NCBI RefSeq assembly: GCF_044324875.1 | Contig: NZ_CP172185.1 | Length of the DNA stretch: 64,000 nucleotides | Source of the DNA: Escherichia coli | Lineage (GTDB): Bacteria > Pseudomonadota > Gammaproteobacteria > Enterobacterales > Enterobacteriaceae | Strand: one strand, 5' to 3' | Part shown: positions 40,599 through 44,569 of the stretch, piece by piece | How positions within the stretch are numbered: position 1 is the stretch's first letter | How the letters are laid out: every line of letters begins with the position of its first letter | Position numbers and translations under genes: made by a program | The notes under the pieces: generated by a model | Databases searched by the model: none | What the model was told of the DNA's origin: nothing | What the model saw: only the letters and a program-made list of their open reading frames with translations

Positions 40599-43348
<2,750 letters not shown>

Positions 43349-43549
43349 TTATTTCGCATCCTCTTCGCAAACACAGTGCTGACAATTCAGCAGACTGATA
43401 TTAAGCATTCAACTAATACGCTGCTGACTCTGTCCCCAACACCAGATATTTTCCCTAACCCGATAGTGTATGAGAAAAGATTTAACGCTGATAAACTAAT
43501 CCTTTATGGTTAGGAGAAAAAATAATGTGATTATTCTGAGCTCTTAACA

Positions 43550-43563
43550 TTGATCGTTATCAA
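43550..43563 (-). promoter_or_regulatory. FNR-box-like palindrome upstream of ydhY
   Basis: TTGATCGTTATCAA matches TTGAT-N4-ATCAA exactly; AT-rich region. Confidence 0.5.
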
Positions 43564-43803
43564 TTAAAATCACTAAGCAAGAAATTATAAGTGAACTGAT
43601 ATTTATTATCATTTGAAATAAATTTAACTTAAACGACAATTATTTGTGACGTTCATTGCAGAAAATAAAAATAACATTATCGTTATAAATTAAAATACAT
43701 ACCGAAATTCGTATAATTTCAGCAGTTGTTATTTAGAATGATTAACTGGACCACAACTAAACTAACAATATCAGGATGAAGCTTACCGCCTCATCCTGAA
43801 TGG

Positions 43804-44013
43804 TCATTTTACCAGTGCGTTAATGACGGTTTCCATCGCCTGCTTTTCTAGCTCACTGCGCTGAATGCGTTTATTGGCTAATGCTGTACGTAACACGCCT
43901 GCGATAACAATATGCTTTGGTTCCTGCCCCAGATCGCGCATTTCCAGCACAACTTTACCGACAACTCTGCACATTTCTCGGTACAGTTCATCCTCTTTTG
44001 TCCGGTTTCCCAT
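43804..44013 (-). CDS. fumD: Fumarase D (YdhZ)
   Basis: 69 aa; K-12 synteny upstream of pykF. Confidence 0.8.
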   Translation of the reverse strand: MGNRTKEDELYREMCRVVGKVVLEMRDLGQEPKHIVIAGVLRTALANKRIQRSELEKQAMETVINALVK

Positions 44014-44569
44014 TCTTTATACCTATTTATCATGCCAACTATCAGCATATATCAATCTAACCAATTAAACAAAAACCAAACAAAATCAGACAAATAACGC
44101 GATAAATTATTTTAACTGTAGCAATTGAGCGATGATGTATTTATACACCGGATGAACTTTCACTTATCTTCACACTGACAACTTCGGCACCAGACGTTGC
44201 GCAAACAGCGAAGTTTTTGCGTAACCTTTTCCCTGGAACGTTAAATCTTTGATAACAATTTATTGTCTTACAAGTTGTATATTTTTTGAAACGCTGTTTT
44301 TGTTTTCCTTTTGGATTAATTTCAGCGTATAATGCGCGCCAATTGACTCTTGAATGGTTTCAGCACTTTGGACTGTAGAACTCAACGACTCAAAAACAGG
44401 CACTCACGTTGGGCTGAGACACAAGCACACATTCCTCTGCACGCTTTTTCGATGTCACCTATCCTTAGAGCGAGGCAACACCACTTTCGTAATACCGGAT
44501 TCGCTTTCCGGCAGTGCGCCCAGAAAGCAAGTTTCTCCCATCCTTCTCAACTTAAAGACTAAGACTGTC

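Follow-up and report, generated by a model that had tools for sequence, protein, structure and literature searches.

The closest architectural analogues of the control region described here are the promoters of dmsA, which is activated by FNR and repressed by NarL, and of fnrS, where FNR acts at -42.5. At dmsA, FNR activates from position -41.5 and NarL represses in response to nitrate. The ydhYVWXUT promoter of Escherichia coli is likewise FNR-activated and nitrate-repressed, with its FNR site at -42.5, one bp further upstream than that of dmsA. The fnrS promoter shares with ydhY both direct activation by FNR and the unusual -42.5 spacing; however, its product is a small RNA without a long leader, unlike ydhY, and no Fur or NarL inputs are noted for it. 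The promoter of ftnA is activated by Fur and silenced by H-NS. The ydhY promoter resembles promoters of this type in that its core promoter is preceded by a candidate Fur box within AT-rich, H-NS-associated DNA, and in that Fur is needed for expression independently of RyhB. It differs in having a single conserved Fur box at a fixed spacing to the FNR site, and at ydhY anti-silencing is only putative.

FNR control of ydhYVWXUT, an operon of still unknown function, has been documented in K-12. Table 1 of Myers et al. 2013 (PMC3688515) lists the operon in category 1, directly activated by FNR through one FNR site, and gives -42.5 as the "location of top scoring FNR binding site"; the same study cites Partridge et al. 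2008 as prior evidence of FNR binding at ydhYVWXUT. Both sigma70 occupancy and expression of the operon were higher without O2 (PMC3688515), which bears out the anaerobic induction in K-12 that an earlier, sequence-only reading of this DNA had stated. The FNR ChIP-seq peak centres are given as 1752688 (Table 1) and 1752706 (Table S5), a sigma70 ChIP peak is listed at 1752642 (U00096.2), and Table S6 holds the entry "TTGATCGTTATCAA ydhY" starting at 1752702 (U00096.2) (PMC3688515). Both FNR peak centres are <20 bp from the site centre. This 14-mer begins at 1754678 in NC_000913.3, which gives an offset of 1976 relative to U00096.2. We take this offset to reflect the known shift of the ydhY position from one MG1655 version to the other. 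The value of -42.5 that we use is second-hand, from Table 1 of Myers et al. 2013 and not from the primary paper, and the FNR, Fur, and expression experiments cited here were carried out in K-12 or CFT073 strains. Neither the genome-wide transcription start site supplement of Kim et al. 2012 nor that of Mendoza-Vargas et al. 2009 has an entry for ydhY.

We compared this published site with a palindrome upstream of ydhY in the window, that is, the whole 64-kb stretch of E. coli DNA that was analyzed. Positions 43550-43563 read TTGATCGTTATCAA (no strand assigned; TTGATAACGATCAA on the gene strand), a perfect TTGAT-N4-ATCAA that matches the FNR consensus inverted repeat at 10 of 10 positions. As the sequence-only reading had stated, this is a perfect FNR-type palindrome, and no other perfect match to TTGATNNNNATCAA exists on either strand of the window. 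Shuffling the window with dinucleotides preserved gave a mean of 0.06 perfect matches per 64 kb, with at least one match in 6 of 100 shuffles. Upstream of the ydhY ATG, 208 nt separate the A (43348) from the box centre (43556.5), and the proximal box edge is 201 nt away, in agreement with the earlier estimate of about 200 bp. The upstream region had also been called AT-rich, and it is: GC content is 0.18-0.28 across 43500-43750, compared with 0.42-0.59 in the flanking genes. A search of the 520 bp preceding E. coli ydhY for a second FNR site with two or fewer mismatches found none.

The gene downstream of the box is ydhY (42722-43348, minus strand, 208 aa), the first gene of ydhYVWXUT, named as in RefSeq annotations of matching E. 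coli genomes. YdhY contains 4Fe-4S ferredoxin domains (Pfam), and the next ORF, YdhV, belongs to the aldehyde:ferredoxin oxidoreductase family; together with the RefSeq name, these assignments uphold the initial identification of an operon encoding ferredoxin-like and oxidoreductase proteins. The K-12 MG1655 ydhYVWXUT promoter occupies the same locus, with ydhY downstream and fumD/ydhZ upstream in both genomes, and its 14-bp box, -10 region, and NarL/NarP-like 7-2-7 element are identical to those of the window. The differences are allelic only (98% identity over a 491-bp upstream alignment that includes short coding flanks). Three substitutions (-60, -57, and -28) are the sole differences between -60 and +20; they leave the FNR box, the -10 element, and the 7-2-7 untouched. 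The window leader is 1 nt longer than the K-12 leader. Because the identical 14-mer is present at the same place, the published K-12 site is the site in the window. FNR occupancy, FNR-dependent activation, and the -42.5 position are established in K-12 and are mapped to the window by this sequence identity. The comparison with the K-12 transcription start and FNR data that had been proposed thus leads to the exact 14-mer, already in the literature at -42.5, a class II position (PMC3688515).

The palindrome is therefore an already characterized FNR site, its regulator and position published in 2008 and confirmed genome-wide in 2013. We have little doubt that it is the operator of a class II FNR-dependent promoter of ydhYVWXUT, centred at -42.5 and followed by a leader of ~166 nt. 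The site is real, functional, and ordinary, and it carries little weight as a discovery because site, position, and regulator have all been published. What is mildly new is confined to the footprint of the control region across genera, which includes the fixed spacing between the Fur-like and FNR boxes and a conserved leader repeat.

Since the box is centred at -42.5, we infer that ydhY transcription starts at 43514 (minus strand, within 1-2 nt), which gives a 5' untranslated leader of ~166 nt (43349-43514, minus strand, from the inferred start and the ATG). Because a purine is more usual at a start than the C present at this +1, the true start could lie a few nt away. The sigma70 ChIP peak at 1752642 maps ~24 bp downstream of the putative +1 and roughly 140 bp from the ATG. 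The candidate -10 element is CATTAT (43522-43527, minus strand), which matches TATAAT at four of six positions, including A2 and T6. On the gene strand, 22 nt separate the box from this hexamer, which thus occupies the 23rd to 28th nt downstream of the box, and its first base is 29.5 nt from the box centre. Class II FNR promoters with sites at -41.5 or -42.5 usually show this geometry. We found no -35 match and no conserved -35 element upstream of ydhY, as expected of a class II, activator-dependent promoter in which FNR occupies the -35 position.

A simple sigma70 consensus scan did not pick up the weak CATTAT candidate. The scan did return ATGATA-17-TATAAT (43612-43584, minus strand), which outscores the real promoter; this pair overlaps the Fur-like box described below and has no support as a ydhY start. 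When the -10 element is read as -12 to -7 (ATTATT), a C (43527) falls at -13, a feature that favors sigmaS. Such a C would fit the sigmaS preference of the ydhY promoter in vitro: Maciag et al. 2011 (PMC3141248) reported that this promoter is better transcribed by the sigmaS holoenzyme in vitro, and that it is rpoS-dependent in stationary phase in one medium.

To test the promoter assignment independently, we scanned one genome per species with YdhY, which yielded 30 loci in four genera: several Escherichia species, about 22 Citrobacter, Leminorella grimontii, and two Limnobaculum. In both Escherichia and Citrobacter, all loci carry a perfect TTGAT-N4-ATCAA ahead of ydhY, and the half-sites are invariant in the 27 distinct promoters of these two genera. 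In the three Budviciaceae (Leminorella and Limnobaculum), the box reads TTGATAACGATCAC, with one mismatch and 13 of 14 positions kept. Across the 30 loci, the ATG is anywhere between ~144 and 241 bp from the box centre, corresponding to implied leader lengths of about 96-199 nt in the orthologues. In box-anchored sequences, the spacer that covers the -35 region is variable, while the box-to-(-10) spacing is fixed and AATAAYCACATTAT follows the box at a constant distance. The Budviciaceae have GACTAT or GATTAT (nAYTAT) at the -10 position. Mean column conservation over the 27 distinct Escherichia and Citrobacter sequences is 0.96 in the FNR box and 0.93 in the -19 to -8 block, compared with 0.67 in the -35 region, 0.55 in the leader from +19 to +41, and 0.56 far upstream. 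The constant spacing to the -10 element and the drifting distance to the ATG indicate that the box is kept in register with the promoter and not with the start codon.

This pattern bears directly on the alternative that the palindrome is a remote upstream activator or architectural site, centred at about -150 to -200 relative to a promoter near the ydhY ATG. The raw distance of 208 bp to the ATG invites such a reading, and FNR sites as far upstream as -132.5 are listed for dcuB-fumB (PMC3688515). However, the published position is -42.5, the sigma70 ChIP peak lies close to the inferred start and well away from the ATG, and our simple sigma70 scan found no promoter-like hexamers between 43349 and 43500 on the minus strand. 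Moreover, a conserved -10-like element sits at class II spacing, and this promoter geometry is fixed while the distance to the ATG drifts by ~100 bp among species, which is what a class II site with a long leader predicts and a remote activator does not. We therefore regard a remote site as very improbable. The sequence-only reading had left two options for the 200-bp gap, a long leader or a site acting further upstream than the usual class II position; the first stands, with the gap between box and gene explained by an untranslated leader of ~166 nt, whereas the second fails on the class II geometry. More generally, the distance to the start codon says little about promoter class where leaders are long, and box-to-(-10) spacing conserved across genera can settle the class without a mapped start.

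Under the class II reading, a [4Fe-4S]-FNR dimer would bind TTGATAACGATCAA in the absence of O2, centred at -42.5, where it would overlap the -35 region and recruit RNA polymerase, and so compensate for the missing -35 element and the weak CATTAT. The transcript would then carry the ~166-nt leader ahead of the ydhY ATG. At class II promoters, FNR contacts the alpha-CTD through AR1 and region 4 of sigma through AR3, and the same contacts are presumably made at ydhY. Probable further inputs are repression by NarL/NarP (7-2-7 at +3 to +18), Fur (-93), and H-NS (the AT-rich upstream tract).

The NarL/NarP-like 7-2-7 element, TAACCATAAAGGATTA (TAACCAT-AA-AGGATTA), spans +3 to +18 (43497-43512, minus strand), and each of its heptamers has one mismatch to TACYYMT. 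Only three 7-2-7 sites with two or fewer mismatches are present in the 64 kb. Escherichia and Citrobacter keep the element at the same position (TAACCCT-AA-AGGATTA), and the Budviciaceae versions, TACCTCT-TT-GTTGGTA and TACCCCC-TT-AGAGGTA, are nearer the consensus. By its title, Partridge et al. 2008 reports regulation of ydhYVWXUT by NarL and NarP, here repression. A sentence quoted from that paper, which opens with "Similarly," describes for dmsA a large NarL-protected region in which both the FNR and the RNA polymerase sites fall; as quoted, this wording implies a like NarL footprint at ydhY. The candidate 7-2-7 is probably the operator for the published nitrate/nitrite repression, and in the comparison with dmsA, its heptamer arrangement at +3 to +18 is a proposed one, read from the DNA.

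Further upstream, a Fur-like box, TCAAATGATAATAAATATC (43598-43616, minus strand), is centred at -93 and matches GATAATGATAATCATTATC at 14 of 19 positions; nine sites in the 64-kb window score at least 14/19 to the Fur consensus. The block containing the box is 92% conserved. In all Escherichia and Citrobacter loci, the box lies exactly 52 bp upstream of the FNR box, and the Budviciaceae deviate from this distance by no more than 2 bp. In CFT073, Banerjee et al. 2020 (PMC7157518) reported a Fur ChIP-seq peak at 1910890 and a delta-fur/WT expression ratio of 0.07 that is RyhB-independent. The corresponding Fur-like box in CFT073 is centred at 1910875, 15 bp from this peak, which makes the box the putative Fur site.

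Both boxes lie in an AT-rich tract (43441-43758, no strand assigned, GC 18-36%) that, with coordinates converted by the 1976 offset, corresponds to the published ydhY(-)/ydhZ(-) "promoter island" 1752593_318, which bears an H-NS mark (PMC3661553). In a delta-hns/delta-stpA strain, the published FNR ChIP-chip signal of ydhY increases about six-fold, from 0.29 to 1.82. Sigma70-like hexamer pairs at 43584-43612 (minus strand), 43613-43640 (plus strand), and 43690-43717 (plus strand) outscore the real ydhY promoter, and the presence of such pairs on both strands fits the listing of this tract as an H-NS-associated promoter island.

We offer as a doubtful proposal that the Fur box is a position-dependent co-activator element for FNR, and that the CCTAACC/GGTTAGG leader repeat has a dual role as part of the NarL/NarP operator and as a stem at the 5' end of the mRNA. 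Putative co-activation by Fur would be either direct or by eviction of H-NS, and the 52 bp would correspond to about five helical turns. If Fur co-activation is true, ydhYVWXUT would be gated by oxygen, nitrate, and iron. The control region may be viewed as a compact site of multi-signal integration, with FNR, NarL/NarP-like, Fur-like, and H-NS elements and a reported sigmaS preference.

Another alternative is that the palindrome serves mainly for something other than ydhY activation, either as a target of CRP or another regulator of the CRP/FNR family, or in repressing spurious or antisense promoters of the island. CRP and FNR sites are related, and the TTGAT half-site is the FNR-specific form, as opposed to GTGA(N). 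Promoter-like hexamers on both strands and the published promoter island (PMC3661553) would suit a repressive role; yet the operon belongs to the directly FNR-activated class, its sigma70 occupancy is higher without O2, and in the literature searched, we found no evidence of CRP binding. We consider this possibility slimmer still than that of a remote site. Least credible of all is an origin by chance in AT-rich DNA, with no regulatory role for the palindrome: the region is only 18-28% GC and a few of the shuffled windows did contain a perfect match, but this reading is already refuted by conservation (half-sites invariant in Escherichia and Citrobacter and 13 of 14 positions kept in Budviciaceae, while neighboring sequence diverges) and by published ChIP-seq occupancy and FNR-dependent expression.

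Returning to the class II promoter and its transcript, the leader contains a Shine-Dalgarno sequence, GAGGA (43359-43363, minus strand), and is conserved only in its first ~20 nt, a block at about +50 to +65, and its last ~40 nt. An Rfam scan of 43200-44100 for known RNA elements returned only an unrelated miRNA model (21.8 bits against a gathering threshold of 69), and this chance match lies upstream of the ydhY promoter, outside the leader. The leader fold is not unusually stable (MFE -41.9 vs. a shuffle mean of -38.3 kcal/mol, z = -0.88), and for the first ~85 nt of 25 sequences, RNAalifold gave a consensus structure of -1.2 kcal/mol with three invariant pairs. By these measures, the leader does not qualify as a structured cis-regulatory RNA such as a riboswitch or attenuator. 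The leader does contain a conserved inverted repeat, CCTAACC at +1 to +7 (43508-43514, minus strand) and GGTTAGG at about +54 to +60 (~43455-43461, minus strand). In the 25 sequences, CCUAACC and GGUUAGG are 95% pairable, compared with 5-67% for slid controls, and only one compensatory change backs the stem. This repeat may reflect either a stem at the 5' end of the RNA or a third heptamer-like site in the DNA.

The leader also varies by insertion. In four Citrobacter loci (L011, L029, L017, and L018), 19-20 nt are inserted directly after the 7-2-7 (L011:2323-2342), which lengthens the leader to 196-199 nt. The insertion in L011 and L029 forms a small hairpin (TACCC...GGGTA), and that in L017 and L018 is different but at the same place. 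Citrobacter sp. NCU1 has two ydhY copies on different contigs (L008 and L024), the second 88% identical to the query protein. Both copies are preceded by a perfect FNR box of their own, set at class II spacing from a -10-like element; in the second copy, the latter half of the 7-2-7 is missing.

Within E. coli, a 551-bp region spanning the promoter matches 5423 of 5426 complete genomes. The window allele is 100% identical to that of an O158:H23 strain, and most other E. coli genomes are ~97.5% identical over the region; only 68 genomes are ≥99% identical to the window allele. Coverage of the 551-bp query falls below 80% in 38 of the 5423 matching genomes. In one E. coli strain, PSS-16 (NZ_AP027713.1), the match is limited to the fumD-proximal 85 bp of the query, and the ydhY promoter appears to be deleted or disrupted, judging from this alignment. 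Just past the fumD (ydhZ) stop codon, a hairpin with a 12-bp stem (43771-43799, minus strand) is followed by a poor T tract, TATTGTTAGT, and is probably the fumD terminator.
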